Shown: positions 9,906-64,000 of the stretch, in pieces
How the letters are laid out: every line of letters begins with the position of its first letter
Numbering within the stretch: position 1 is the first letter of the stretch
Made by a program: the position numbers and the translations under genes
The notes under the pieces: model-generated
What the model was told of the DNA's origin: nothing
Database searches by the model: none
What the model saw: the letters and a program-made list of their open reading frames with translations, nothing else
Assembly: GCA_964550025.1 (NCBI GenBank)
Contig: CAZJYI010000021.1
Location: forward strand, 1-64,000
DNA: 64,000 nt
Direction: 5' to 3'
From: an uncultured Victivallales bacterium
GTDB taxonomy: Bacteria; Verrucomicrobiota; Kiritimatiellia; UBA8416; CAYOBW01

Positions 9906-11074
9906 CACGCTTCCTCCTGCGATGCCGTCGGAGGGGGCGGTTCCGGCGGCGGGGTGGTTACGGTCTGCAGGATCACGTCCTGGTTGGCGCGGAAGCCGGA
10001 GACCGTGTACCTGTCGGCCGCGTGTGCGCCGTACCAAACGCTTTCCAGGACGCCGACGTTGGTTCGGAACGCCTCCAGCAGGGACGCGCGGTCGTGAGCC
10101 CGGCGGTCGAGCTCGCGGCCGTAGTCGCGGTTGGACTTGTGCTTTGCGATTCGGACCAGACGGCACTGCCCGAGATGTGCCAGTGCCGCCAGGAACATGG
10201 CGCGAAGGGCCAGACGCCATTCTTCCCTTTCCATGAAGTCCATGGCCATTTCCATCCAGCGGTCGGCGGGAAGCTGGTCGGCCACCACGTCCTCGTCCGT
10301 GATGTCGGGCAGTGACGCGACCGGAACGGCTTTCACGGCGGGCCCCCGGCGGCGCGTCTTCCAGACGCGATACAGCACGAAGCCCAGGAGGATGCCGGCC
10401 AGAACGGCCGCCAGGACCCACATCGACCGCACCGAGACCAGACCACGCGAACGGTCGACGTCATGCTCCCTCCTGTACATCAGCCTGCGCATCCATCGCA
10501 GCAACTTCGTGAGCTGCTTGGCCACCCACCTGCCGAATTGGCGCAGTTTCTCCATGACGCGCTCGAGAAAACCGGCCAGGATTCCCGGTTCGGCGACCTC
10601 CTCTTCGCGCTCCCTGGGGGCGCGCCACGCGTAGCGCGGCTTGACGAGCGTCGTGTCGATGGCCCTGTCCAACTCCTGTGCCGTGATGCCGGCGCCTGCC
10701 GGCGCGGTTTCAGCTTCGGCCCGGCACGGGGTGGAGTGCAGGGGCAGCAGGGACAGGAGCAGGAGATACAGCGCTGCGGCAGAGACTCGTACTCCGGGCT
10801 GCGTCCGACCGTGTCCGAGAGGGGGGGGGCGACGCGATCGCGAAGTAGGACGGTGCTCCTGCGCCGTCCGGGGAGGCAGCACGGAGGCGGGTAGTGCGAG
10901 AGAATGGCACGATGTGCGGCTCCTCTCTCTCTTCGTCCTCCACGTTCTGCCACAAGGACGGCGCGGGAGCACCGTCCTACGGGGGAAGACTGCGCCCCGT
11001 GCCCTGTTCGGCCCCGGGTGTTCCGAAGACCGTGACGCATTCCCTCGCACCACTCTCACTGCTCCTCCTCCCAC
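9905..11074 (-). CDS. DUF4129-like membrane protein
   Basis: C-terminal KSNRDYGRELDRRAHDRASLLEAFRTNVGVLESVWYG matches the DUF4129 pattern (SRTxRE ... RYG). Has an internal TM. Start is uncertain: the first ~90 residues are R/P-rich and overlap the upstream gene by 19 nt. A GTG at VRVSAAALYLLLL is plausible. Confidence 0.6.
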   Translation of the reverse strand: MGGGAVRVVRGNASRSSEHPGPNRARGAVFPRRTVLPRRPCGRTWRTKRERSRTSCHSLALPASVLPPRTAQEHRPTSRSRRPPPLGHGRTQPGVRVSAAALYLLLLSLLPLHSTPCRAEAETAPAGAGITAQELDRAIDTTLVKPRYAWRAPREREEEVAEPGILAGFLERVMEKLRQFGRWVAKQLTKLLRWMRRLMYRREHDVDRSRGLVSVRSMWVLAAVLAGILLGFVLYRVWKTRRRGPAVKAVPVASLPDITDEDVVADQLPADRWMEMAMDFMEREEWRLALRAMFLAALAHLGQCRLVRIAKHKSNRDYGRELDRRAHDRASLLEAFRTNVGVLESVWYGAHAADRYTVSGFRANQDVILQTVTTPPPEPPPPTASQEEA

Positions 11075-12347: not shown

Positions 12348-13501
12348 TGCCGCAGGACCTTCTTGTCGGCGGGTTCGTCGTTTTCGGGCTGCTCGTTGCC
12401 GGGCCGGTTGTCCTCCGGCTGCCCGTCGTCGGCGGGCGCGGCCGGCGGTTGCGGCGGCGCGTCGTTCGGCATGCGGTAGCGCCGCATGAGCAGAAGCCCC
12501 CACAGCGCCAGGATGCCGGCCGTGAACATGCAGGCCACCAGCCAGCCCAGCAGCACGGGGGTCGTGCCGAGCGGGACAATGGCAACGTAGTGCTGGACGC
12601 CCCAGTAGTCGGGGGTTCCTCCCTGCTGGATAGTGTAGGCCATGTTGTAGACCGTCCAGAAGGCAAGGGACGCTCCCAGGTATGCTACCGTTCCCCAGGC
12701 CACGTTCCGTATCCCGCGCGGGAGGTCCGTGCCCTGCTGCTTGATGAGCGCCGTAACGGCCGAGACGATGAGTCCCACGGCGATGAAGGCGCCGGCCGAG
12801 TGCACGGCCACGGTGCGCACCAGCATGTCGGCCATGGTGTGCAGCATGTCGATCAGGAGGAAAACGAAGAGGATGTCGTGAGCCCGGCTGCGGTAGGGCT
12901 TCAGCGGCCGGTCGCGGCCCGGCGGCTTCGGCGGGATCGGTTGGGCGGAGACCTTTTGCGCGATGGCTTGTGCTGCCGACGATTCGGTATCGAGCCATAG
13001 GCGTTCTGCGTCCTCCGGTGCCAGTGCGCCCTGCAGGGCTTCGATCTCCGCGCGCAGCTCGCGGGTGACGCGGAGGGCTTTGCGCATGCGGCTGAGGCAG
13101 TAGAGCCGTTCGGTCTGGACCGCCGTGCGGATCTCGCAGACGCATGTTGGGCCCGCGACCAGGTTGACGAGCAGTGGCACGCTGAACAGGAACATGAAGA
13201 AGGCGTCGACGACCATGGCGGCAACGGACCATCCCAGGAATGCTCCCAGCACGGTCAGCAGCAGGAACAGAGCCGTCAATCCGCCGAAGATCCCGTTCAC
13301 CACCTCCCACGCGGACGTCCTTCGTATGACGATGGCCTGGATGTCCTTGAGGTAGAAGCGCTTATACTCCTCGGAAAACCCGGCGCCGGAAACGGACAGG
13401 ACATGGTCCGGCCCCATCCAGAGGCTCGTGCGGGCGATGGACGCCGTGGAGGGGCCCGCCAGCCTGCGGTATTGAACGCGCGCCGTACTACTATCCGTCA
13501 T
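12344..13501 (-). CDS. Polytopic membrane protein, function unknown; first gene after repeat element A
   Basis: 385 aa, multiple TM helices, C-terminal Pro/Glu-rich tail. N-terminus MTDSSTA lies inside the conserved element. Confidence 0.6.
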   Translation of the reverse strand: MTDSSTARVQYRRLAGPSTASIARTSLWMGPDHVLSVSGAGFSEEYKRFYLKDIQAIVIRRTSAWEVVNGIFGGLTALFLLLTVLGAFLGWSVAAMVVDAFFMFLFSVPLLVNLVAGPTCVCEIRTAVQTERLYCLSRMRKALRVTRELRAEIEALQGALAPEDAERLWLDTESSAAQAIAQKVSAQPIPPKPPGRDRPLKPYRSRAHDILFVFLLIDMLHTMADMLVRTVAVHSAGAFIAVGLIVSAVTALIKQQGTDLPRGIRNVAWGTVAYLGASLAFWTVYNMAYTIQQGGTPDYWGVQHYVAIVPLGTTPVLLGWLVACMFTAGILALWGLLLMRRYRMPNDAPPQPPAAPADDGQPEDNRPGNEQPENDEPADKKVLRQ

Positions 13502-13598
13502 CTTCTTGCTTTCCTGGCGGGTCCACCGGATGGGAGCGGCTATCCCGTTGATCCTGTCCGAATTCCCGTTTGGCTTCCGCTATGCTGTGTCGTGGTCA
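13482..13598 (-). repeat. Conserved intergenic element, copy A (fills the gap from the upstream stop to the downstream start and the first ~7 codons)
   Basis: Aligned by eye to copies B and C. Core GGACAGGATCAACGGGATAGCCGCTCCCATCCGGTGGACCC ... AAGAAGATGACGGATAGTAGTACGG (minus orientation). Confidence 0.6.
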
Positions 13599-20403: not shown

Positions 20404-20633
20404 AGAGTAACGCTGAATGCTGAAGTGGGAGCGATCCCACTTCGGCATTCTCGTCTTCTGGGGACCTCTCTGTCGAAATGTAGCCACGAGCGTGAGCGAG
20501 TGGACGGGTGACGGGGTTGGTTCAGCGGCATGTCCACTCGCTCACGCTCGTGGCTACTCTCGGTGCTGAAAGTCTGACTTCAGCATTCATCATTCGATAT
20601 TCAACATTCAACATTCGACATTTCCCTCCTCCC
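20404..20633 (+). repeat. Palindromic repeat element, copy 1, with nested 26-bp perfect inverted repeat and a terminator-like hairpin
   Basis: Arms AACGCTGAATGCTGAAGTG ... CTTCAGCATTCA..ATTCAACATTCGACATTTCCC. Hairpin gaatgctgaagtggga(gcga)tcccacttcggcattc at ~20415-20450 just after the flotillin stop. Perfect inverted repeat GTAGCCACGAGCGTGAGCGAGTGGAC at 20481-20506 and 20532-20557. Confidence 0.6.
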
Positions 20634-22250: not shown

Positions 22251-22320
22251 GTACGAGTACGGCCCGGAACCTGACGCGCGCATGGATACGACGCTGGTGG
22301 CGGGGGAAGGAGAAACCGCA

Positions 22321-22436
22321 GAATGATGAACGCTGAATGATGAATGCTGAAGTGCGAGACCTGTCTCCGTGCGTGCCCTTCCCCTCTCACTTCGACATTG
22401 AGCATTCAGCGTTCAATATTCGACATTTCCCCTCCC
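22321..22436 (+). repeat. Palindromic repeat element, copy 2
   Basis: GAACGCTGAATGATGAATGCTGAAGTG...CACTTCGACATTGAGCATTCAGCGTTCAATATTCGACATTTCCCCTCCCC. Same arms and tail as copy 1, direct orientation. Confidence 0.6.
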
Positions 22437-31941: not shown

Positions 31942-31949
31942 GGCGGAGA

Positions 31950-32127
31950 GTCTCAGATTGCGAATCTCAGATCTCAGATCTCAAATCTCAAATCTCAGAT
32001 TTCAGATCTCAGATTTCAGACCTCAGATTTCAGACCTCGGACCTCAGATTTCGGGTCTCACATTTTACATCCCAGATGTTGCGTACGGGAAATGGTGGCG
32101 GATCTGAGATCTGAGATTTGAGATATG
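31950..32127. repeat. Heptamer microsatellite (TCTCAGA/TTTCAGA/TCTCAAA) of ~16 tandem units plus a 4-unit inverted copy
   Basis: Read directly: tctcagattgcgaatctcagatctcagatctcaaatctcaaatctcagatttcagatctcagatttcagacctcagatttcag... Then cggatctgagatctgagatttgagat at ~32100-32127. Confidence 0.75.
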
Positions 32128-32144
32128 TGATCCCGGATCCCCCA

Positions 32145-33068
32145 TCACTCGCCCCTCAGTGCCTCCACAACGGTCAGCGTGTTCTCGCGCATCATGCCGA
32201 GGTACGTTTCGCCGGCGCTTCCGTCCTCACCCATGGCGTCGGAGTACAGTTCGCCGCCGATCTTGACGCCCGCTTCCCCCGCGATCTGGCGGATCATCTT
32301 GGGGTTGACGGAGGTTTCCACGAAAATGGCGGGTACATTGAAATCCTTGATGGACGCGACCACCGTGCGCCGTCTCTGCGGCGTCATCCCCCCGCCGATC
32401 TCCGAACCGGTCGACCAGCCGACGGGGCTGCGCACTTTGAAACCGTAGCGGGCGGCAAAGTAGTTGAATGCGTCGTGGCTTGTGACGAGCACACGTTTCG
32501 CCTTGGGAATCGTGCTGACCTGCTTCTCGATCCAGGCGTCGAGGGCGCGGAGCTGTTGCAGGTAGAGGTCGGCGCGGGCCTGGTACGAGGCGGCCCCCTC
32601 CGCGTCAATCTTCATCAGCGCGCCCAGAATGTTGTTTACGTAGAGCGCGGCGTTGCGCGGATCAAACCATGCATGCGGGTCCTTGACCATCTGCCCTTCG
32701 TACTGGAGGTCCAACGGCTGAATCCCGTCCGTGCAGGTCACCAGGGGCTTGTTGCCGTTGTCCTTCGCCAGCGAAGCCATCCAGTTCTTACCTTCGAGAT
32801 GCAATCCGTTCTGAAGACAAAGGTCCGCCGTCTCCACGAGACGGCTGTCTCCCGGCACGGGCTGGTAGACGTGAGGGTTCACGCCCGCCCCCAGGATGCA
32901 GATAACCTCGCAACGGTCTCCTGCTACCTGCCGCGCCAGGTCGGCGGTCTGGGTTGTCGAGCAGACAACGCGCGGTTTCCTGGTCGCTTCTGCGGCGCCT
33001 GCTTCCGTCGCACAGAGGAGTGCGAGGGCCGCTGCCAGACCCGTGAACAGTATCCTGCTACCTGTCAT
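32145..33068 (-). CDS. znuA: Metal ABC transporter substrate-binding protein (ZnuA/TroA/MntC, cluster A-I)
   Basis: Start MTGSRILFTGLAAALALLCATEA (signal peptide). HVYQPVPGD, VTSHDAFNYF, metal-ligand His/Asp positions. Confidence 0.85.
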   Translation of the reverse strand: MTGSRILFTGLAAALALLCATEAGAAEATRKPRVVCSTTQTADLARQVAGDRCEVICILGAGVNPHVYQPVPGDSRLVETADLCLQNGLHLEGKNWMASLAKDNGNKPLVTCTDGIQPLDLQYEGQMVKDPHAWFDPRNAALYVNNILGALMKIDAEGAASYQARADLYLQQLRALDAWIEKQVSTIPKAKRVLVTSHDAFNYFAARYGFKVRSPVGWSTGSEIGGGMTPQRRRTVVASIKDFNVPAIFVETSVNPKMIRQIAGEAGVKIGGELYSDAMGEDGSAGETYLGMMRENTLTVVEALRGE

Positions 33069-35919: not shown

Positions 35920-36047
35920 TCTCTTGCCTTTTTGACACGATCTACAGGATCCACGGGATGGGAGGGGATATCCTGTCGATCCTGTTGATCCTGTCCAAAA
36001 TCCCATTTGGCCGCGGCTATGCTGCGCTGTGTGGCCGTGGTTCTTCA
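35898..36047 (-). repeat. Conserved intergenic element, copy B (three ACAGGATNN direct repeats)
   Basis: Minus orientation: TGA-AGAACCACGGCCACACAGCGCAGCATAGCC...GGACAGGATCAACAGGATCGACAGGATATCCCCTCCCATCCCGTGGATCC...AAGAGAATGGTGGGGTATAGTACAG. Confidence 0.6.
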
Positions 36048-40006: not shown

Positions 40007-40281
40007 TGTCAGCTCGAATCGCTTCACCCTGTCTTCCTCTACGGGCGGACGCCCCATACCGGGTACGCCGTTGCATAGTCAGTTCTTAGCAGGCGGCGGC
40101 CTCGGAGCAAAGCCGAAAGCGGTGGGGCGCAAGGGGGAGGATCATGTAGCACGATTAAGCAGCACGATTGAGAGGGGCTCCCTGCTCACACTTCGTCGTG
40201 CTACTTAATCGAGCTACTTCATCTCTTCGCCCCGGCGCGAGGGCAATGTCCACCCATCATCTTCGCATGGAATTTCGCGGA

Positions 40282-44528: not shown

Positions 44529-44603
44529 CACACACTCTCCCGTACCGATTGCCGGTCGCTGATAACCGATCACTGATCACTGATGACTGATCACTCCTCT
44601 TCA

Positions 44604-46373
44604 CTAGTAAAGCCCCGTCACCTTCCCCGTCTTCACGTCGACGTCAATCCCGCGGAACGCGGGATTGGATGCCGTGCCGGGCATCAGCTTGATGGCGCCG
44701 GCCACGGGTACAACGAAGCCTGCCCCCTTGTACACGAGAATGTCGTGCACGGGAAGTTCCCAATCGGCCGGGCGTCCCTTGAGCGACGCGTCGTGCGACA
44801 GGCTCAAGTGTGTCTTGACCATGCACGTCCCGAACTTGCGCGCGCCGGCGTCTTTCTCGAGACGGTTGATCTTGCCCTGGGCCCGGTCGCTGTACGTCAC
44901 GGCATCGGCGCCGTAGACCTCTTTCGCGATCAGCTCGATGCGATCGCGCAGCGGGGTCTCCAACGGATAGAGGAAGTCGAAGTCGTGCTTCTCTTCGGCA
45001 ACGCTGACGACGGCCTCGGCCAGCTCACAGGCGCCTTCGCCGCCGCGCAGCCAGTGGTCCGATGACACGGCCACGGCCCCGCTCGCCTCCGCGATCCTGC
45101 GGACGGCCTCCACTTCGGCCGGCGTGTCCGTGTGGAAGGTGTTGACGCAGACAATGGGGCGAACACCACTCCGTTTGACGATGTCGATGTGGGCGCGGAG
45201 GTTCTCGCAGCCCTGCTCGACGAGCCCGACGTCTTCCTCCGTGTAGGCCGGGTCAAGCGGACGCCCCGGCCTCACCGCCGGGCCGCCGCCGTGCATCTTG
45301 AGTGCGCGCACGGTGGCCACGATGACCACGGCATCCGGTTTCATGCCTGAGAATCGGCATTTCAAGTTCCAGAACTTCTCGTAGCCGATGTCCGCGCCGA
45401 AACCGCTTTCGGTCACGTGGTAGTCCGCGAGTCGCGTGCCGAGCTGGTCGGCGATGATCGAGCTCTGGCCAATGGCGATGTTGGCAAAAGGGCCGGCATG
45501 GACCAGGAGCGGCTGCCCCTCGATCGTCTGGAGAAGGTTGGGATTGACGGCGTTGACCATCCAGGCCGTCATGGCGCCGTCGACTTCGAGATCGGCGGTT
45601 GTCACTTCCTTGCCGGACGTGTCGTAGGCAACGACCATTTTCGCGATGCGGTTGCGCAGATCCTCGAGACCGGTCGCGACGGAGAGAATGGCCATGACCT
45701 CGCTGGCAACCGTAATGTAGAAGCCGGACTCCATTTCCAGGCCGTCCATCTTGCCGCCCTTGCCGATGGTGATGTTGCGCAGGGCCTGGGCGCAGAAATC
45801 CAGCGCCCAGCGTAGCTGCACGCGCGCGGGATCGATATCGATGCGGGTCAACTTGCTTCGCGCCAGCCGTTCGTCGTCGTAGTTGAACTCGTGCTGCATC
45901 CGCGCCGTCAGGGCGACCATGGCCAGGTTGTTGGCGTTCGCGATGGCGTCAATGTCGCCGGTCAGGCCGAGTGACAGGGGGGCGAGCGGGATGCACTGCG
46001 AGAGGCCGCCGCCCGCGGCGGAACCCTTGATATTGAACGTCGGTCCGCCGCTGGGCTGGCGGATGGCGCCGGTAACGCGTTTCCCGAGCCTGCCGAGCCC
46101 CTGGATGAGTCCCAGCGTCGTGGTGGTCTTACCCTCGCCAAGAGGCGTTGGCGTGATGGCGGTCACATCGATGAACTTGGCCTTTCCCGGCTCGGGCAGG
46201 CGCTCCATGATGCGCGCGTAGTCAACCTTGGCAAGCTGACGCCCCATCGGGATCAGTTCGTCTTCCCGCACACCAAGCTCTCCGGCCAGCCTTGCCGGAG
46301 GGGTCATCTGCTCAGCCGCGAGCTCTGCGATTTGCCAGTCTTTCAGTTGCGTCGGATCCAGTCTCGTTTGCAC
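44604..46373 (-). CDS. fhs: Formate--tetrahydrofolate ligase
   Basis: 589 aa. [12 protein letters not shown]-loop and full-length collinearity with FTHFS. Confidence 0.9.
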
Positions 46374-46540
46374 TGTTCGCTACCTCTTCATCGTCACGGT
46401 CATCTCTCCTGTTGTTCCCGGGACGCGGTCGGGGTGTAACCCGACCCTCCATCGCGCAGAAACGGCCCGTTCTCCGTCCTGGAGGGACGGCTGCCACGCC
46501 GTCCGTGCCTCCGGGGGGAACAGTGGTGAAGACCGTGTTT

Positions 46541-47365
46541 TCATCGTACCAACATCAGAACCCCGGCAGCCATGATCACGGCGATCACGGCGGCCTGCAG
46601 TTTTCGTTCGGGGAGCTTCGCGGAGAGCTTGCTGCCCCAATACACGCCGACCGTCGACCCCAGCCACATGGTGATGGCCGTGGCAATATCGACTTCGCCG
46701 CCTCTCCCGTAGATCAGAACCGTTACGAGCGGGAGAATTACACCGATAAACAGCGATGTGCCGACCGCGTGGGCGGTCGGCATCCCGACGAGAATGATGA
46801 GCAGCGGCATCATCACCACGGCTCCGCCGATGGACGTGGAGCCGACCAGAGCCCCCACGAGGATGCCGACACCCGCCGTGATGGCGCGTTTCACTCCTGA
46901 GCGTCCGGCGACCCATCGCGCGATGCGGCCCTGGTGGTCGGTGGCGCGGGCTTTTCCGACCAGGTTGATGATCAGCAGCACGACGGAGAGGAGTATGACG
47001 GCGCCGATGAAGACCTTGAGCCCCGACTGGAACGCCTGCGCGGCTTCCGGACAGCCCGCCACCGATGCCGTGCGGCGATTGATGAGTAGCGACACCAGCA
47101 CGTTGGTGGGCACGGCCGTGGCCAGGAACAGGGCGGATGTCCGGAAATCGACGTTTCCCAACCGGTAGTGCCGATATGACGCAAAGACCTTTGTCAGCAG
47201 GGCGTAGAGGCACGTCGTCCCGACGGCCGTGGATGGCGGCATGCCGAGGACGAGCGTGGCGGAGGGGACCACGAGCACGTTGCCGACCGCGGTCATTCCC
47301 ATGCAAAAGCCGATCGCCAGGCCGATGCCCAAGCGCAACATGAGCCCTACGCTGTCGAAGTCCAT
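46541..47365 (-). CDS. Sulfite exporter TauE/SafE (DUF81) family membrane protein
   Basis: 274 aa, 7-8 TM. Duplicated GxGGG-type motifs. Confidence 0.8.
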   Translation of the reverse strand: MDFDSVGLMLRLGIGLAIGFCMGMTAVGNVLVVPSATLVLGMPPSTAVGTTCLYALLTKVFASYRHYRLGNVDFRTSALFLATAVPTNVLVSLLINRRTASVAGCPEAAQAFQSGLKVFIGAVILLSVVLLIINLVGKARATDHQGRIARWVAGRSGVKRAITAGVGILVGALVGSTSIGGAVVMMPLLIILVGMPTAHAVGTSLFIGVILPLVTVLIYGRGGEVDIATAITMWLGSTVGVYWGSKLSAKLPERKLQAAVIAVIMAAGVLMLVR

Positions 47366-47507
47366 TATGCCATTCCCTGCTCTTTTCTATAGTAAAGAGG
47401 GCGGAGCATACCGTTCCCGGTAGCTCGGCGAAAGCCAAAAAAGGCGCGACGCGGCGGTCAATGCAGAATCGTTCCCACCCGCAATCTCTCCCCCAAATCT
47501 CCCCCCC

Positions 47508-47878
47508 GAGCGGGAGGAGTGGGATTATGATTGGGGAGGGGAATGGGAATTCTCCCCGATCGTAATCGCACTCTCTCGCGCCCTGATCGCCTCGGCGTGG
47601 TCTCTTGGGACGATTGGTGAGGGGGAGGAGTGGGATTATGATTGGGGAGGGGAATGGGAATCCTCCCCGATCGTAATCGCACTCTCTCGCGCCCTGATCG
47701 CCTCGGCGTGGTCCTCTGGGGACGATTGGTGAGGGGGAGGAGTGGGATTATGATTGGGGAGGGGAATGGCAGTTTTCCCCGATCGTAATCGCACTCTCTC
47801 GCGCCCTGATCGCCTCGGCGTGGTCTCTTGGGACGATTGGTGAGCGGGAGGAGTGGGATTCTGATTGGGGAGGGGAAC
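47508..47878. repeat. Tandem repeat, ~111-bp unit x ~3.3 copies (periods 111, 113, 110)
   Basis: Unit GGGAGGAGTGGGATTATGATTGGGGAGGGGAATGGGAATTCTCCCCGATCGTAATCGCACTCTCTCGCGCCCTGATCGCCTCGGCGTGGTCTCTTGGGACGATTGGTGAG. Contains an internal hairpin GGGGAG...CTCCCC. No spacers. The track ORFs inside it are short and interrupted. Confidence 0.8.
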
Positions 47879-47886
47879 CGCGGCGG

Positions 47887-49557
47887 TCAGTACGTGAACA
47901 TGCTTCCGCCGATATACTCGCGCAGGATGGAGGACGACGGTACGAGCTCAAACGGTGCTCCGAGAAAATTGAGAAGGAACTCCGTCAGGCGACGCGACTC
48001 GGCATACTCGGGGTCGGAGGGCTTGATCTGCATGAGTAGAGGTTCCACCAGGGGCTTGAGTATTGCGAGCTCATAGTCCAGGGCAGAGTTGAACGTGGCG
48101 TCCGCTCCGCGCTGGAACGGGAAGATCCACCGCTTCTCCCCTCGCCGCACGGAGGGCCAGCGGCGCAGGGTCTCCAGCGCAGAATGCCCGCGGTACTTGT
48201 GATCGCGAACCATGCGACGCATCAGACGGTTGTCCGTCGTCGAAATCCGGTTGTTGAAATCGACGCTGAGCTGCGTCAGAGCGTTGATGTAAACCTTGAA
48301 CTTGCGGTGTGCGGGCACCATCTCGGTCAGGCGCGGATTCAGACCGTGGATGCCTTCGATGATGACGACGTGGTTGTTGTCAATCTTCAGCGTGTGTCCG
48401 TGGTACTCGCGTGATTTTGTCTCGAAATTGAAGTGGGGCAGTTCGACCTGGCGGCCGTTGATGAGCTTGACCATGTCCGCGTTGAAGAGCTCGAGGTCGA
48501 CGGCCTCCACGTGTTCGAAGTCGAGCTCGCCGCTTTCGTCGCGCGGCGTCTGTTTGGGGCCCACGAAGTAGTTGTCGGTCGCGACCGTCACCGGCTGTAT
48601 GCCGTTGACGCGCAGGTGGTTGGTCAACTTCTTGGCGAACGTCGTCTTTCCCGCGGAGGAGGGGCCGGCCATGAGGATCATCCTGAGGTCACCGCGGCGG
48701 GACGCAATCTGATCGGCAATCTGGGCGCACTTCTTCTCGTGCAGCGCTTCGGCGATCATAATGAACTGCTGGAGACCGTGGTCGGCGATGATCTCGTTCA
48801 GACGCCCGACGGTGTTGACTCCCAGGATGCGCCCCCAGTGCTTGTGTTCCTGGAAGATGTGAAAGAGATGCGGCTGATCGACGAAGTCGGGTATGTCGAG
48901 CCGTTCGTTGCGTTCCGGGACCTGCAGGACGAGCCCCGGCGGGTAGTGGAGCAGCTTGAAGCGGTTGAGAACGCCCGTTGAGGGGACCAGCGGGCCGTGG
49001 GCCAGGTCCGAGAACCCGTCGCACCAATGCAGCACGACGCGGGGGGGATTGCGGTGCCTCAGCAGGTTCAGTTTCTGAAGTTGACCGGACTCCTCGAACT
49101 CACGCACGGCGGCGGTGTAGGCGATCTTGCGGCGTTCGATGGCGACGTCCCGGGTGACGGTCGCCCGCATCTGCCTGTCAACGCTGGCCAGTTCGCGGGC
49201 GCTGATGCCTGCCGTCGAGTCGTCGCCGCGGGTGAATGTGCAGTACAGGCCCTGGCCGAACGAATGCTCGATCGTAAAGTGCGCGTCGGGATACAGCTCG
49301 TGCACCGTCTTGGCCAGCAGAAAGGAGAGCGAGCGCCGGTAGATTCTCCAGCCGTGGGGGTCGGCGGCCGTGAGGAATCCCACCTTGCTATCCACGGTCA
49401 ACGGGTAGGACAGGGAGGCCGCGTCGTTGTTGACCAGCGCGGCAATGTACGGCAGGCCCGACTCGGCCAGTCGCGACTGCAGCAACGAACACACAGCCGT
49501 CCCGACGTCGCATTCCAGCGACCGACCGTCCTCAAATGTCACGGAAATCCGGTTCAT
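47887..49557 (-). CDS. TGS-domain (ThrRS N-terminal-like) + uridine kinase/PRK-family nucleoside kinase
   Basis: N-terminal TGS-like ISVTFEDGRSLECDVGT. Kinase P-loop GPSSAGKTTFAKKL. Confidence 0.7.
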   Translation of the reverse strand: MNRISVTFEDGRSLECDVGTAVCSLLQSRLAESGLPYIAALVNNDAASLSYPLTVDSKVGFLTAADPHGWRIYRRSLSFLLAKTVHELYPDAHFTIEHSFGQGLYCTFTRGDDSTAGISARELASVDRQMRATVTRDVAIERRKIAYTAAVREFEESGQLQKLNLLRHRNPPRVVLHWCDGFSDLAHGPLVPSTGVLNRFKLLHYPPGLVLQVPERNERLDIPDFVDQPHLFHIFQEHKHWGRILGVNTVGRLNEIIADHGLQQFIMIAEALHEKKCAQIADQIASRRGDLRMILMAGPSSAGKTTFAKKLTNHLRVNGIQPVTVATDNYFVGPKQTPRDESGELDFEHVEAVDLELFNADMVKLINGRQVELPHFNFETKSREYHGHTLKIDNNHVVIIEGIHGLNPRLTEMVPAHRKFKVYINALTQLSVDFNNRISTTDNRLMRRMVRDHKYRGHSALETLRRWPSVRRGEKRWIFPFQRGADATFNSALDYELAILKPLVEPLLMQIKPSDPEYAESRRLTEFLLNFLGAPFELVPSSSILREYIGGSMFTY

Positions 49558-50752: not shown

Positions 50753-50874
50753 TTCCGTACTACTACCCGTCATATTCTTGTCGTCTTGGCGGATCTACGG
50801 GATGAGAGGGACTATCCTGTTGATCCTGTCCAAACTCCCCCTTGGCTACGGCTGCGCTGCGTTTCCAGACGTCA
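50753..50874 (-). repeat. Conserved intergenic element, copy C
   Basis: Minus orientation: TGA-CGTCTGGAAACGCAGCGCAGCCGTAGCCAAGGGGGAGTTTGGACAGGATCAACAGGATAGTCCCTCTCATCCCGTAGATCCGCCAAGACGACAAGAATATGACGGGTAGTAGTACGG. Confidence 0.6.
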
Positions 50875-52077
50875 TGGTTTCATGAAGAGGAGCAACGCGG
50901 CCATGCCGAGGAACAGCAATCCCGTCAGGCACTTGGCGACGGCGACCTCGCGGCGACTCCAGGTCAGGAGCTCCTGCAGCGTCAGGCCGGTGTACGAGAG
51001 CCCCACGACGGCAACGAGCGGCAGGATGAACATCGCGTTGTACAGGGCGAGGCATGCCAGGACACGCGCCCCGGCGTGGCCCGCCTTAACGACAAGGACC
51101 AGCGTTGGCACGTAGACCTGCCCCGTGCACACGCTCTCCAGGGCCGTGACGATCGCGCCCGCCGCCAGCGCACCCACCAGCGCGTAACGCGCGTTCATTC
51201 CGTCACGTATCGTGCGCTTGATCCTGCGCTTGAGTCCATCCGGCAGGCGAAGGGTCACTTCCTCCTCGCGGTGGCTGCGATGGTAGCGCCACGCGTCGCG
51301 GAAGGAGAGGGCGGCAAGTACCAGGAGAAGGGCAAGGAGGGTTATCTCGAATACGCGTTGCAGCGCACCGAAACCCTCCAGCGAGTGGAACGCGTGCAGC
51401 AGACCGAAGCCGATCGCGGTGTAGGTTGCGAACGACGCTGCGCAGAATGCCAGCCCGTTGGCCAGCATCCGCCGTCGACCGACCTTGAGGACGCCAAGGA
51501 CGCTGACCAGGAACACCAGCGTTGAAATGGCGCACGGGTTGATCCCGTCGACGAGCCCCGCCCCCGCCACGCCCAGCCATGTGAAGCGCCTGATGCGCTC
51601 CTCGAGGAGCTGTTCGTCGGAGAGCCTGGCCCTGGACGTGTCACCCGTCGGTGCCCGCGGCGCGGTTCCGGGGTTCAGTCTCTCTCCAACACGCCTGTCC
51701 ACCTGTTCCAGGACCCCGTCGCGAATGGCCGGCCACCCCGCGAAGGGATGGGTCCCGTCCACGAACATGATGACGGATTTGCTGACGTTGAACTGCAGTT
51801 TCTCCTGGAGCCGCACGAGCGCCAGGTAGTTCGTCTTCACCCGGGTGTCGTAGCGATTCAGGGCGTAGAAGCCCTCGTAGCGTTCCCGCAACGGGATGAT
51901 GACCTGCTGTTCGACTTTCGTGCACGCGGGACAGCCGGGCTCGTAGAAGTAGTCAACCTGAACAGGGACGATCTCAGCGTGCTCGGGGGCGGTGTTGGTT
52001 GCGGCGACACCATCCGCGGCGCACCACAGCCCCAGGAGGACTGCTGCCGATCGCACGAGTGGTGTCGGTATCCTCAC
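50872..52077 (-). CDS. Thioredoxin-like domain fused to DsbD/CcdA-type transmembrane domain
   Basis: Signal peptide. YFYEPGCPACTKVEQ thioredoxin CxxC. GINPCAISTLVFLVSVL and CTGQVYVPTL DsbD_2 cysteines. Confidence 0.7.
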   Translation of the reverse strand: MRIPTPLVRSAAVLLGLWCAADGVAATNTAPEHAEIVPVQVDYFYEPGCPACTKVEQQVIIPLRERYEGFYALNRYDTRVKTNYLALVRLQEKLQFNVSKSVIMFVDGTHPFAGWPAIRDGVLEQVDRRVGERLNPGTAPRAPTGDTSRARLSDEQLLEERIRRFTWLGVAGAGLVDGINPCAISTLVFLVSVLGVLKVGRRRMLANGLAFCAASFATYTAIGFGLLHAFHSLEGFGALQRVFEITLLALLLVLAALSFRDAWRYHRSHREEEVTLRLPDGLKRRIKRTIRDGMNARYALVGALAAGAIVTALESVCTGQVYVPTLVLVVKAGHAGARVLACLALYNAMFILPLVAVVGLSYTGLTLQELLTWSRREVAVAKCLTGLLFLGMAALLLFMKP

Positions 52078-52124
52078 ACCGATAACCGATCACTGATAAC
52101 TGATGACTGATCACTGATGACTGA

Positions 52125-53120
52125 CTACCGGCTCCTGACCGTACGTCCGCTGTTCGCGCTTTCCCGGATCATGTCCATGAGTTTCGCGAATCGCAGGCCG
52201 ACTTCGGCGGGGCAGGGGTTGTCCAGGCGTCCCTCGCGCACCTTGACGAACTGTTCCCATACACCGCGCGATCGGGCGTATTTGACAGCGTGAAACTCCG
52301 GGTCCCCATCGGTCTTGATGAGGAGGCGCTCTCCCCATATCCCGGTTTCGAGGACCCCCTTGTCGCCAAAGATGTGGACCGTCGAAGCGCACTGGATGGA
52401 ATCCCCCGCGCCAGCCATGGAGAAGAGAACGCCGTTGCGGAAGCGCCCGCTCACCGATGATGCGATCTCGACCGGTGTGCTGCGGTTGTCGAACATGCCG
52501 GTGACCTCGACAACGTCCTCGCCGACAAGGTCGACGACAGTGTTGATCATGTGGGACCCGGTATCGAACAGAAAGCCGCCTCCCGAGAGTTCGGGGTCCT
52601 GCCGCCATGTCCCGGTGGTGGCTTGTTTCCAGCGCTGGTGCGCGTGGGCCGACACGCAGGTCACCTTGCCGATCGTTCCTTTGGCGATGAGCTCCTTTGC
52701 CTTTTGAACCGCGGGGGAGAGGCTGCCCGGGAAGGCGACGACCAGAAGCCGTTCCGCCTTGTCGCGGGCCTTGATGAGGCGGCGCGCTTCCGATGCATTC
52801 ACCACCATCGGCTTCTCCAGGCAGATGTCCATGCCGTGTTTCAGGCAGTCGCGCGCGTTCTCGTAGTGGAACTTGTGGGGTGTACAGATCAGGGCCGCCT
52901 CCGGACTCTCAACGGCCTTCACCAGGTCCTTGACCGAATCGAAGAACGGCGGGCAGCGGCGGCCCTGCTCCACGAACATCTCCACGACGGCCTCCCGGGA
53001 CCGCTCGGAAACCTCAACGAAACCGACGATATCCGTGGTGCGGCGTTGCAGGAGCATGGTGCGGATGTGGTGCCGCGCCATGCCGCCCGTGCCGACGACG
53101 ATGGTTCTGATGCGGGGCAT
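52125..53120 (-). CDS. Gfo/Idh/MocA family oxidoreductase
   Basis: IVVGTGGMARHH Rossmann N-terminus. EKP motif ICLEKPMV. Confidence 0.85.
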   Translation of the reverse strand: MPRIRTIVVGTGGMARHHIRTMLLQRRTTDIVGFVEVSERSREAVVEMFVEQGRRCPPFFDSVKDLVKAVESPEAALICTPHKFHYENARDCLKHGMDICLEKPMVVNASEARRLIKARDKAERLLVVAFPGSLSPAVQKAKELIAKGTIGKVTCVSAHAHQRWKQATTGTWRQDPELSGGGFLFDTGSHMINTVVDLVGEDVVEVTGMFDNRSTPVEIASSVSGRFRNGVLFSMAGAGDSIQCASTVHIFGDKGVLETGIWGERLLIKTDGDPEFHAVKYARSRGVWEQFVKVREGRLDNPCPAEVGLRFAKLMDMIRESANSGRTVRSR

Positions 53121-53138
53121 GTTCTTGCTCCTTGTGCC

Positions 53139-53244
53139 AATTCCAAATCCCAGATCTCAGATTTCAGATTTGGGATCTCAGAGACCAAAGGCCAGAGACC
53201 AGTATGTCCAAGTTCTCCCTCTGAAATCTGAGATCTGAAATCTG
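53139..53244. repeat. AGATCTC/AGATTTC heptamer-type inverted repeat element
   Basis: aaatcccagatctcagatttcagatttgggatctcagagacc ... ctgaaatctgagatctgaaatctg. Confidence 0.6.
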
Positions 53245-53260
53245 CCATTCGCCCTCTTCC

Positions 53261-56627: not shown

Positions 56628-57114
56628 AGTCCCTCCGGTACATGACACGATTCGAGCCGGACACGCAGTATGGCCCGTCAAGCTGCCCGGGTCAACAGCG
56701 TTTGCGAGGTTGCGTGGGTTGCGGGACTTTGCTTTGGACCGCGGCTGTGCGTCTATCGTAGTACGCTGCGATACAGCGACCAACCGCATCTCAAGCGCGC
56801 CACGGTCTCATCCGCGAATGATGACGGCGACACGCGCTGCGCCTGCTACGGCGTGGCACACGATAGCGGTGGATGATACCGAGATTCTCCCCTCGTTCCC
56901 CACTACCGGCCTCGCTCCCACCCCTACTCCAGCCCGTACTCTCTCCCCCGAACTCTTGGGGTAGTCATTTGGAGAGTAGGGGTTGGAGTAGGGGATGCCG
57001 TCCCCGGTTGAAAGGCTCCAAGTTGCAGATGTGCTCTGGAATCGGGGTGGCGGGCTTGCACCGGCCCCTCGTGATCGGATAGGGTCTCACACAACCTTAT
57101 GCCGGAGGATCACG

Positions 57115-60582: not shown

Positions 60583-60840
60583 GTGTTTGTTCCTCTTCAA
60601 TGTCCCCACCGGCCTTGTGCCGGTGGAACGAAAGACCGATATACAGCGGTAATACCGCCGGGCATCCTGAGCCCGGATGGAGCAAGAGACGAGTGAAATC
60701 TCTCTTTGCTCCTGGCGGGCTCCATGACTCCTGTGAGTTTGTGTTGTCGGCTGTTCGCGTTGTCTGTCGCCGGCTGGAAGCCGGCACCACTCGCCACCGG
60801 CTGGAAGCCGGCGCTACTTGTCACCGGCTGGAAGCCGGCG

Positions 60841-62115
60841 TTACACGATCTCGCACTTCTTGGCGTCGAAGCGGGCGGTCTTGCCTTCGCGCATGGACTT
60901 CATCGCCATCTGGAGGATGGTCTGTGTCCGGAAGGCGAGGTCCATCGGGCTCCAGGTGTTCTTGTCGCGCTTCCTGGCGCACTCGATCAGGTTCTTCCAG
61001 TGTTCCGTGTTGCTCTCACCGCGCTCGATCGGGATGCGCTGCGGGGCCTTGGCGCCCTTCTGCCGGATGGGCATGAAGAAGATCTCCTTGTTCTTCTCGA
61101 TGGAGAGGCTGCCCTCCCAGCCGCGGATGACGGGGCAGCGCTGGCCCGCGCCGCGGCGGTCCGTCGTCTGGTAATCGTTGGCCTGCGTTCCCAGGACGGA
61201 GATCGTGACGTTTTCCGGGTACTGCGCGATCAGGTTGAACGTGTCGGGCACCTCGCGCAGCTTGTAGGAATAGCGATGAATGCCCCCGACCGCCACGACC
61301 TCGGAAGGGAAACCCACGCCGAGGATATCCACCACCTGTGTCAGGCAGTGCGGGTAAAGGTCGGTTACAGGACCGCCCGCGTAGTCTTCAAAGAGGCGCC
61401 AGCGGAAATAGCGGTCCACGCTGAATTCGCGCTTCGGTGCATCCCCCAGGAACGCCTCCCAGTTGAGATCCTTGCCGGGCTTGGCCTTGGCGTCGTCGAC
61501 GCGCATGCCGCGCTCTCCCCAGTCGCCCACGCGGAAAAAGCCTGTTTCGCCGAACAGCGGTTGTCCAATCAGCCCCTCCTGCACCAGTTTCTTCATCTGG
61601 TGCCAGACACCGTCGCTCATGGCCTGTGTACCGACCTGGAAGACGCAGTCCGACTTGGCCACAACGTCTGCCAGTTTCTTGGTCAGTTCGAACTGGCGCC
61701 AGTGGGTTACCGGCTTTTCGCAGTAGACGTGTTTGCCTGCGTTGACTGCGTCAATAGCCGCGTAGCCGTGATGATGATCCGGCGTGGCGATGCAGACGAT
61801 ATCTACGTCCTTGTCCTGCAACAGTTCGCGGTGGTCGTCGTAGCCGCGCGCGATTCCGAATTGCTTCTTCCTGCCCTCCATGCGGGGGCGATAGGTGTCA
61901 CAGACCGCCACGAAATCGAGCGGCATTTTCTCGCGGTCGCGCAGGTGGCGGATCATGTTCATGTGCCCGCCCGCGCGCCCGCCGGCGCCGATGAAGCCGA
62001 TGCCGATGCGGTCGTTGGCGCCCTGCGCCTTCGCGATGTTGAAGGCCGAAACGGCCGCCGCGCTCGTGGCCGTGGCCTGGATGAAGCTCCGTCGAGACAT
62101 GTTCTGCTTCTTCAT
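60841..62115 (-). CDS. Gfo/Idh/MocA family oxidoreductase with twin-arginine (Tat) signal
   Basis: MKKQNMSRRSFIQATATSAAAVSAFNIAKA Tat motif. GIGFIGAGGRA Rossmann. CEKP. Confidence 0.85.
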   Translation of the reverse strand: MKKQNMSRRSFIQATATSAAAVSAFNIAKAQGANDRIGIGFIGAGGRAGGHMNMIRHLRDREKMPLDFVAVCDTYRPRMEGRKKQFGIARGYDDHRELLQDKDVDIVCIATPDHHHGYAAIDAVNAGKHVYCEKPVTHWRQFELTKKLADVVAKSDCVFQVGTQAMSDGVWHQMKKLVQEGLIGQPLFGETGFFRVGDWGERGMRVDDAKAKPGKDLNWEAFLGDAPKREFSVDRYFRWRLFEDYAGGPVTDLYPHCLTQVVDILGVGFPSEVVAVGGIHRYSYKLREVPDTFNLIAQYPENVTISVLGTQANDYQTTDRRGAGQRCPVIRGWEGSLSIEKNKEIFFMPIRQKGAKAPQRIPIERGESNTEHWKNLIECARKRDKNTWSPMDLAFRTQTILQMAMKSMREGKTARFDAKKCEIV

Positions 62116-63515: not shown

Positions 63516-64000
63516 CTACAGACCGCACTCTTTCAGGTACGCCGCGCTTTTCTGGAGAATCTCCGGCGTACCGACGATTTCCAGCGTGGAGCTTTCGCAA
63601 GGCGCGTCTTTAAGCACTTCGCACACGCCCTTGATATCGATCACGCCGTCGCCCAGGGCGATCGTCGAGAATCCGCAACCGAACAGCGTGCCGCGTTTCT
63701 CGACCCACTCTTCTCCAAGGTCTTTCCAGTGCACGTGGTGGATCTTGTCCTTGAAGACCTTGGCCATCTCGACCGGGTCGGCGCCGCCGAGCCAGGAGTT
63801 GCCCGTGTCCATGTTGACGCCCAGCGACGGCGGGTCGCCCAGGCGGTCCATGATGTCCTGGATGCCCTTGATGGAATCGGTGATCGGACCGTGCGGTTCG
63901 AGCAGGATGCGCACGCCGTAGTCTTCGGCCATCTTGACCGGTGTGTAGAGTTTCTCCGCCACGATGAACACGCGCTCCTCGTAGCTGAGGGCCTCGGCCC
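63516..64000 (-). CDS. Sugar phosphate isomerase/epimerase (xylose isomerase-like TIM barrel), N-terminus beyond window
   Basis: C-terminal 151 aa seen: ILLEPHGPITD, NMDTGNS, HHVHWKD metal-ligand motifs. Confidence 0.7.
   Translation of the reverse strand, partial: AEALSYEERVFIVAEKLYTPVKMAEDYGVRILLEPHGPITDSIKGIQDIMDRLGDPPSLGVNMDTGNSWLGGADPVEMAKVFKDKIHHVHWKDLGEEWVEKRGTLFGCGFSTIALGDGVIDIKGVCEVLKDAPCESSTLEIVGTPEILQKSAAYLKECGL

Follow-up and report, generated by a model that had tools for sequence, protein, structure and literature searches.

The window analysed here, a stretch of 64,000 nucleotides from an uncultured Victivallales bacterium, contains a nucleoside kinase gene and, downstream of it, a gene for a TauE-family permease, both encoded on the minus strand and separated by a spacer of 521 bp (Table 1). 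In this intergenic spacer lies a tandem array, which TRF reports at 47508-47877 with a period of 111, 3.3 copies, 95% matches and a score of 675, and which is the only strong TRF array reported. This bears out the original prediction of a 111-bp tandem repeat with 3.3 units that are about 95% identical. The predicted periods of 111, 113 and 110 bp are not reproduced, as the units, when aligned, measure 111, 112 and 111 nt and are followed by a partial fourth unit of 37 nt. Three core motifs of the unit are confined to the array within the 64-kb window, where none is expected by chance.

In gene orientation the array begins 1 nt past an 11-bp repeat that holds the stop codon of the kinase gene, and it ends 143 nt upstream of tauE. 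Since the kinase stop codon (TGA) is found at 47887-47889 on the minus strand, the array lies wholly downstream of the kinase gene and not in its 3' region, where it had been placed before; its predicted position upstream of the tauE exporter gene holds, with the tauE start at 47365. The kinase had also been labelled as a TGS protein. We could not confirm this label, as Pfam shows the PRK/uridine-kinase domain alone and NCBIfam adds only a weak match to the N-terminal part of threonyl-tRNA synthetase.

Table 1. Features of the kinase-tauE locus, with positions in the window
Feature	Position	Strand	Description	Basis
tauE-family permease gene (274 aa)	46541-47365	-	downstream neighbour	Pfam PF01925, E 1.8e-35; identical protein on 16 metagenome contigs
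Ancestral kinase-tauE spacer	47366-47449	-	outside the insertion; contains a T6 tract (47435-47444) and a 20-nt block identical in lineage B	empty-site alignment with L100/L099
Direct repeat copy 2 (11 bp)	47450-47460		CGCGGCGGTCA	exact 11/11 match
Non-repeated insert end	47461-47507	+	degenerate arm; C-rich on the plus strand, G-rich in gene orientation	within the segment absent from the sibling spacer; aligns with the matching end of the second copy
Unit 1	47508-47618	+	hairpin 1 at ~47510-47581 (29 pairs), hairpin 2 at ~47583-47617	plus-strand RNA -60.9 kcal/mol, z -5.9; minus strand -42.0
Unit 2	47619-47730	+	long and short hairpin	plus-strand RNA -64.8 kcal/mol, z -5.2
Unit 3	47731-47841	+	long and short hairpin; loop variant GGAATGGCAGTTT	plus-strand RNA -55.5 kcal/mol, z -4.5
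Partial fourth unit	47842-47878	+	only the G-rich 5' arm, with ATG changed to CTG; terminal arm of the insert	unit alignment, 1 mismatch to core motif
Direct repeat copy 1 (11 bp)	47879-47889		CGCGGCGGTCA on the plus strand, TGACCGCCGCG in gene orientation; includes the kinase stop codon	exact 11/11 match
Uridine-kinase/PRK-family nucleoside kinase gene (556 aa, as called on all contigs)	47887-49557	-	upstream neighbour	Pfam PF00485, NCBIfam udk-like

Structure and coding capacity of the repeat unit

Each unit folds into a 29-pair hairpin that extends over about 72 nt and is followed by a second hairpin of about 36 nt. This is the outcome of the per-unit structure prediction that had been proposed as a check. 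The GGGGAG...CTCCCC hairpin noticed at the outset is present, although it forms merely the tip of the stem of about 29 bp. The predicted folds are stable on both strands. Per unit, the free energy is -55 to -65 kcal/mol for RNA from the plus strand (z -4.5 to -5.9) and -37 to -47 kcal/mol for RNA from the minus strand (z -4.4 to -5.1), and the z-scores of all folds of the inserted segment described below range from -4.4 to -6.9. The better fold of the plus strand is due to the few stem positions that depart from Watson-Crick pairing, which are G.U on this strand. This bias concerns 4-5 positions and is not significant by our own estimate (two-sided p ~0.1). Across the four hairpin copies, three of which are nearly identical, pairing amounts to 95% and no pair has changed on both sides. 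The hairpin structure thus gives no evidence of being under selection.

The array is non-coding, as had been concluded from its interrupted reading frames. Its open reading frames are at most 74 amino acids long and none of them is called as a gene. The frame is lost in unit 2 because this unit has 112 nt, and stop codons are found in all frames. No gene is called in the kinase-tauE spacer on any of the contigs examined, which comprise ten shown of the 16 that encode an identical TauE protein, together with further contigs. A CRISPR array can be rejected, in agreement with the earlier assessment, since the units follow each other head to tail and there are no unique spacers. The duplicated GATCG motifs are also as described, with two in each unit. 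An enrichment of GATC (a Dam-like site) in spacers is ruled out by its densities in the window, which are 5.6 per kb in intergenic and 6.4 per kb in coding sequence.

The searches for known RNA families and signals gave no hits of relevance. With Rfam at gathering thresholds there was no match in the whole window. A permissive Rfam search of 47300-48000 returned only matches far below the gathering score, and the best of these, to eukaryotic miRNA-precursor models, reflect a generic long hairpin. A scan for tRNA and tmRNA genes found none. Neither strand of 47200-48100 contains a site that resembles a sigma-70 promoter or an intrinsic terminator. No T run follows either of the two hairpins of a unit, and an intrinsic (Rho-independent) terminator was rejected because no U tract comes directly after the GC-rich stem.

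An insertion at the kinase stop codon and its empty site

The array had been located at 47508-47878. It is indeed found there, but as part of a larger inserted segment, 47461-47878, which is flanked by the exact 11-bp direct repeats listed in Table 1. These repeats are situated at the exact borders of the stretch that is missing in a sibling lineage. When sequences were shuffled, a repeat of this kind arose by chance between two 80-nt flanks in 23 of 20000 cases (~0.1%), and none of the nine other hairpins or repeats of the window that were tested has a flanking direct repeat of at least 8 nt. The insert measures 418 bp in the form found in the window and 195 bp in a shorter allele, and it ends with GTTCCCC... 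on one side and with ...GATTCTGCAT on the other. In folds of the minus strand, pairing is possible between its non-repeated end and the arm of unit 1 next to it. The statistics do not support terminal inverted repeats. The best inverted match between the ends is 22/33 with an offset of 10 nt from one end, and 263 of 2000 composition-preserving shuffles reach the same value.

The core of an integron attC site reads GTTRRRY. On visual inspection the ends GTTCCCC/GGGGAAC depart from this core, and the sibling lineages have tauE as a resident gene, so that we rejected an attC site.

Sibling lineages were found through homologues of TauE and of the kinase, with proteins that are 82-86% identical (86% for the kinase). 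Their gene order is the same as in the window, with a HemN-like gene, the kinase gene and tauE, followed by FTHFS and/or FolD. The spacer between kinase and tauE has 13 nt in lineage C (L094, L106-L109) and 87 nt in lineage B (L099-L105), and on the contig with P0002, from JGI 3300072015, it has 113 nt. The 111-bp unit is absent from all the listed loci of lineages B and C, as well as from 80 orthologous kinase loci in other PVC-group MAGs; we regard a weak match in L023 (E ~1e-4 to 0.3) as noise. When the insert and one of the 11-mers are deleted from the window, a spacer of 101 nt remains, which aligns end to end with the spacer of lineage B, T6 tract and 20-nt block included. As this reconstructed empty site matches lineage B, the whole segment represents a lineage-specific insertion with a target-site-like duplication.

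The part of the spacer that lies outside the insertion probably contains the promoter or leader of tauE, between 47366 and 47449. A block of 20 nt at 47399-47418 (~4711-4730 in L100), which reads GGGAACGGTATGCTCCGCCC in gene orientation, is 100% identical to lineage B. By contrast, the flanking genes are merely ~78-83% identical at the DNA level to those of lineage C. The block may be a promoter or leader element of tauE.

Two further observations concern the neighbourhood of tauE. In distant PVC-group MAGs (L015, L020, L031, L033, L034) the kinase gene is directly followed by FTHFS and/or FolD, and in comparison with 44604-49557 of the window no tauE homologue was detected at the locus. It seems that tauE was gained at the junction between kinase and FTHFS/FolD in the ancestor that the window lineage shares with its siblings. 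The spacer between tauE and FTHFS (46374-46540) has 167 nt in the window compared to 21 nt in lineage B. It has been expanded by palindromic sequence and folds into a long GC-rich hairpin, with about -83 kcal/mol for a stretch of 200 nt.

Two array lengths, a second copy and comparable elements

Exactly two spacer sequences are found across independent metagenome assemblies of a near-clonal population. This population is present in the JGI samples 3300007510, 3300007511, 3300009128, 3300009314, 3300009320 and 3300013118-20 and in the ENA re-assemblies ERZ23498639, ERZ23498660 and ERZ23498668, which are named SUTE22-1. The long form, with 3.3 units and a spacer of 521 bp, is present in the window, L003 and L004. 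The contigs L008 and L010 both break inside the array, and their ends fit the long form only. The short form, with 1.3 units and a spacer of 298 bp, is present in L001, L002, L005, L006 (the same contig as L111), L007, L009 and L110, and consists of unit 1 and the partial unit. It is the long form with 223 bp cleanly removed, and 69 bp are identical at the junction. The 6 kb of flanking sequence contain between 0 and 5 SNPs, which are not linked to the allele.

The two lengths are explained equally well by unequal recombination or slippage and by a collapse of the repeat in short-read assembly. That the difference is an artefact altogether, in a population where all members carry 3.3 units or more and short-read assemblers have collapsed them to 1.3, is a serious possibility, though one we lean against. 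The loss of 223 bp across an identity of 69 bp is a path which is open to assembly by de Bruijn graphs when k is below 69; two contigs end within the array; and the flanks are identical, without any SNP linked to the allele. On the other hand, re-assemblies with the shared name SUTE22-1 show both forms (the long form twice and the short form once), which is not decisive. The same applies to the recurrence of the short form in seven separate contigs, of which six are identical and L110 is assigned by its equal length of 298 bp.

A search with BLASTN and an nhmmer profile, covering 10 kb past each end of the window, resulted in the discovery of a second homologous element at ~4467-4715 of L116 (4434-4682 of L115, and also in L117). 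The element is ~5.3 kb past window position 64000, at a distance of ~21 kb to the array. Identity reaches 90% in a core of 90 nt, and an alignment of ~230 nt takes in the entire insert of the short allele with an identical order of arms, namely a C-rich arm, a small hairpin, a G-rich arm, a loop, a C-rich arm and a G-rich arm. The 28-nt 3' arm CCGATCGTAATCGCACTCTCTCGCGCCC is identical in the array units and the second copy, and the loops are wholly different. The second copy is single and not in tandem, and it is diverged. It is located between a gene of the FGE-sulfatase family and an S24-peptidase-like gene, and its orientation is opposite to the direction in which these neighbours are transcribed. 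A flanking repeat with 8/9 matches at this copy is expected by chance. Apparent indels between L115 and the window turned out to be N-gaps of the scaffold and not polymorphisms.

Searches in sequence collections gave no additional copies of the element. An exact scan for the 5' arm found no match in the genome collection and three chance matches without extended similarity in the metagenome collection, where in both cases the locus itself was missed and the probe has mismatches to the second copy. The 3' arm has no match in IMG/VR, and BLASTN against plasmids and phages found none.

Several known repeat systems resemble the insert. BrickBuilt and MITE464/PgRS of Porphyromonas gingivalis are MITEs with an internal minisatellite (PMC4596501). 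Like the insert, they are non-coding, species-restricted and strongly structured, are confined to intergenic sequence in every case and have a leader and a tail around a spacer-less tandem repeat (PMC4596501). Their repeat varies in copy number and they are dispersed in the genome (PMC4596501), traits that the insert may share. The unit of 111 nt, which is itself a long hairpin, differs from the 23 nt of BrickBuilt, and two loci are known here in the ~85 kb of genome covered compared to 19 for BrickBuilt (PMC4596501). Unlike BrickBuilt, the insert has no significant terminal inverted repeats. The flanking duplication of 11 bp compares with 2-9 bp for the ISPg elements of Porphyromonas gingivalis (PMC4596501).

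The classical bacterial MITEs include Correia/CREE, ERIC, Nezha and Chunjie (reviewed in PMC3184786). For Chunjie, the review gives direct repeats of 9 bp and, in its printed form, a delta G range from about -98 to about 130 kcal/mol (PMC3184786). The insert shares with these elements a size of ~200-400 bp, the lack of an ORF, a very stable RNA stem-loop and flanking direct repeats, as well as the occurrence of filled and empty sites in close relatives and a location at the 3' ends of genes (PMC3184786). Among the features by which MITEs are recognised we find a target duplication (for the array copy only), an empty site in relatives, a small size, no coding capacity and a stable fold. Terminal inverted repeats, in contrast, are a hallmark of MITEs (PMC3184786) and could not be demonstrated in the insert.

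The mycobacterial MIRUs are another point of comparison, as the one described is found between two genes of a polycistronic unit and is missing at the homologous site in a related species (PMC3184786). The likeness extends to repeats of ~40-100 bp, short flanking direct repeats that suggest insertion and internal GC-rich inverted repeats (PMC3184786). The small ORFs of MIRUs overlap with the genes on either side and maintain translational coupling (PMC3184786), whereas the insert contains no such ORF. No sequence relationship between the insert and MIRUs is known. MIRUs form tandem arrays with a copy number that is polymorphic among strains. The insert also resembles the REP, BIME and REPIN elements, which are clustered extragenic palindromes found downstream of genes inside operons. 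Elements of the REP type stabilise upstream mRNA and attenuate read-through. REPs are 20-40 nt long and highly abundant, have a link to RAYT transposases and cause no target duplication when they insert. Measured against this family definition, the hairpin of ~72 nt and the 11-bp duplication led us to reject membership of the insert in the REP/REPIN family.

Origin of the array and its possible effect on tauE

We consider it likely that the array arose by amplification of the inner module of a small MITE-like element, palindromic and non-coding, which inserted directly after the kinase stop codon in one lineage. The element would have arrived by a staggered-cut, transposase-type insertion at the stop codon. 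Its 111-bp module might then have grown and shrunk through unequal recombination or replication slippage between direct repeats of 36 nt and longer. It is unlikely, in our opinion, that the locus is instead a minisatellite which was never mobile and arose by duplication in place and hairpin-driven template switching, with the 11-bp repeat and the second locus as by-products of local duplication or ectopic gene conversion. Such an origin would have to account for an exact 11-bp duplication precisely at the borders of the segment that the sibling is missing, and for a homologous element of ~230 bp with the same arm order that is found ~21 kb away in another gene context. There are observations that would suit it: the window is full of unrelated long intergenic hairpins and heptamer repeats which have no flanking repeats, the adjoining spacer between tauE and FTHFS is likewise hairpin-expanded when compared to a sibling, and the insert has no significant terminal inverted repeats.

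The original prediction had proposed three candidate roles for the array, of which a satellite is favoured by our results, as the array is absent in siblings and its copy number differs among assemblies of one near-clonal population. The position of the array upstream of tauE raises the question whether it could be a dedicated cis-regulator of this gene. This might be a tandem array of operators or promoters, or a leader on the minus strand that resembles a riboswitch, in which the C-rich loops CCAUUCCC pair with GGGAAUGG just upstream of the tauE start. A complementarity of 10 nt between the loop of unit 3 (47762-47771) and the ribosome-binding region of tauE (47368-47377) would fit with this, as would the alternative pairing of the arms (1:2/3:4 versus 2:3). 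However, by our own rough estimate a 10-nt match in a region of 700 nt is not rare by chance, and neither an Rfam match nor a promoter-like site supports the predicted promoter or operator array. We regard a dedicated regulator as highly improbable because siblings keep the kinase-tauE pair with spacers of 13 nt or 87 nt and no array, because the second copy is located beside unrelated genes and opposite to their transcription, and because what is conserved in the spacer, the 20-nt block, does not belong to the insert.

The remaining candidate, a multi-copy small-RNA locus, could take the form of an array of small RNAs or mini-ORFs on the plus strand, antisense to both neighbours, with a structured RNA of ~110 nt per unit. 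The plus strand does fold far more strongly than the minus strand, changes in the stems among units preserve the pairing on this strand, and each full unit contains a GGAGG, followed after 9 nt by an ATG and a 12-codon ORF (MIGEGNGNSPRS in unit 1). But the GGAGG arises easily in a G-rich arm by composition, the G.U bias is not significant and there is no covariation. No signal that resembles a promoter or a terminator was found on either strand and the array has no Rfam family, so that the small-RNA locus is left unsupported. The array is, moreover, very young, since its units are 95% identical and it is absent from siblings. For these reasons a function of this kind appears extremely unlikely to us.

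As close relatives exist without the array, it does not represent a conserved control element of tauE, and the locus is an ordinary case of a mobile repeat or minisatellite. The original prediction had also described how neutral minisatellite expansion would present itself, with variable presence among strains and no other genomic copies. What we find is mostly of this kind, in that presence varies among lineages, yet a second genomic copy was found. Taken together, the observation made at the outset is partly confirmed and the interpretation given to it is partly supported. Neither the larger insert with its 11-bp duplication nor the dispersed second copy had been anticipated.

A MITE-like insertion of this type would have no dedicated function, but it might nevertheless affect its neighbours. 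If the array is transcribed within the kinase-tauE spacer, its very stable hairpins could impede read-through as well as 3'-5' exonucleases. Expression of tauE would then no longer be coupled to the kinase gene and would rely on the conserved ancestral spacer of 101 nt downstream of the insert. Such a barrier effect of the modelled hairpins is probably incidental. One can go further and speculate that uncultured marine bacteria of the PVC group (relatives of Lentisphaerota/Kiritimatiellota) harbour an undescribed family of mobile repeats of the hairpin type, to which the insert would belong, with an 11-bp target duplication and without canonical terminal inverted repeats. The 111-bp module would then act as a transcriptional insulator that is tunable by copy number and sets the co-expression of tauE with the kinase gene, and the locus would be one case of a wider filling of spacers with hairpins. 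This is an improbable scenario as a whole.

In itself the array carries little weight, being a young and lineage-specific repeat insertion of the familiar MITE/minisatellite kind. It does provide a clean case of a filled and an empty site, in which an operon junction that has 13 nt in one sibling has been widened to 521 nt by a structured insert. If reads confirm the difference in copy number of the 111-bp unit, it could serve to mark strains of an uncultured marine population. The array together with the many other long hairpins suggests that the lineage accumulates palindromic spacers, and this broader pattern may be the more interesting lead.

Very long and near-perfect hairpins, which are unrelated to each other, are found at 20480-20557 (with 26/26 perfect arms), 10845-10980 (~135 nt, -100 kcal/mol), 40140-40223, 56921-56994 and 35929-36000. 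According to a rough gene map most of these long hairpins are located in spacers, and none has a flanking direct repeat of at least 8 nt. Tandem heptamer repeats occur at 31943-32146, 53136-53252, 22317-22427, 20572-20626, 44530-44604 and 52064-52138, and also at ~2790-2840 of L106. They are composed of the heptamers ATCTCAG, CACTGAT/CTGATCA and TTCAACA/GAATGAT, and several form inverted blocks that fold into long hairpins of low complexity. The same heptamer families recur across spacers, and a run of the CTGATCA type is found in the spacer between HemN and kinase of a sibling as well.

Two other repeats were noticed in the window. A dispersed repeat of ~53-108 nt with 74-81% identity is found at three loci (13483-13594, 35979-36031 and 50755-50866), which the gene map places at or near the starts of minus-strand genes. 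It contains ATCCTGTTGATCCTGTCC... and ...GGCTATGCTG, and the three loci may thus have a promoter, leader or repeat element in common. Finally, a unit of 27 nt (TGTCACCGGCTGGAAGCCGGCGCTACT) is present three times in tandem at 60765-60844, where each unit contains a small CCGGC...GCCGG hairpin and the repeat abuts the stop end of a minus-strand gene.
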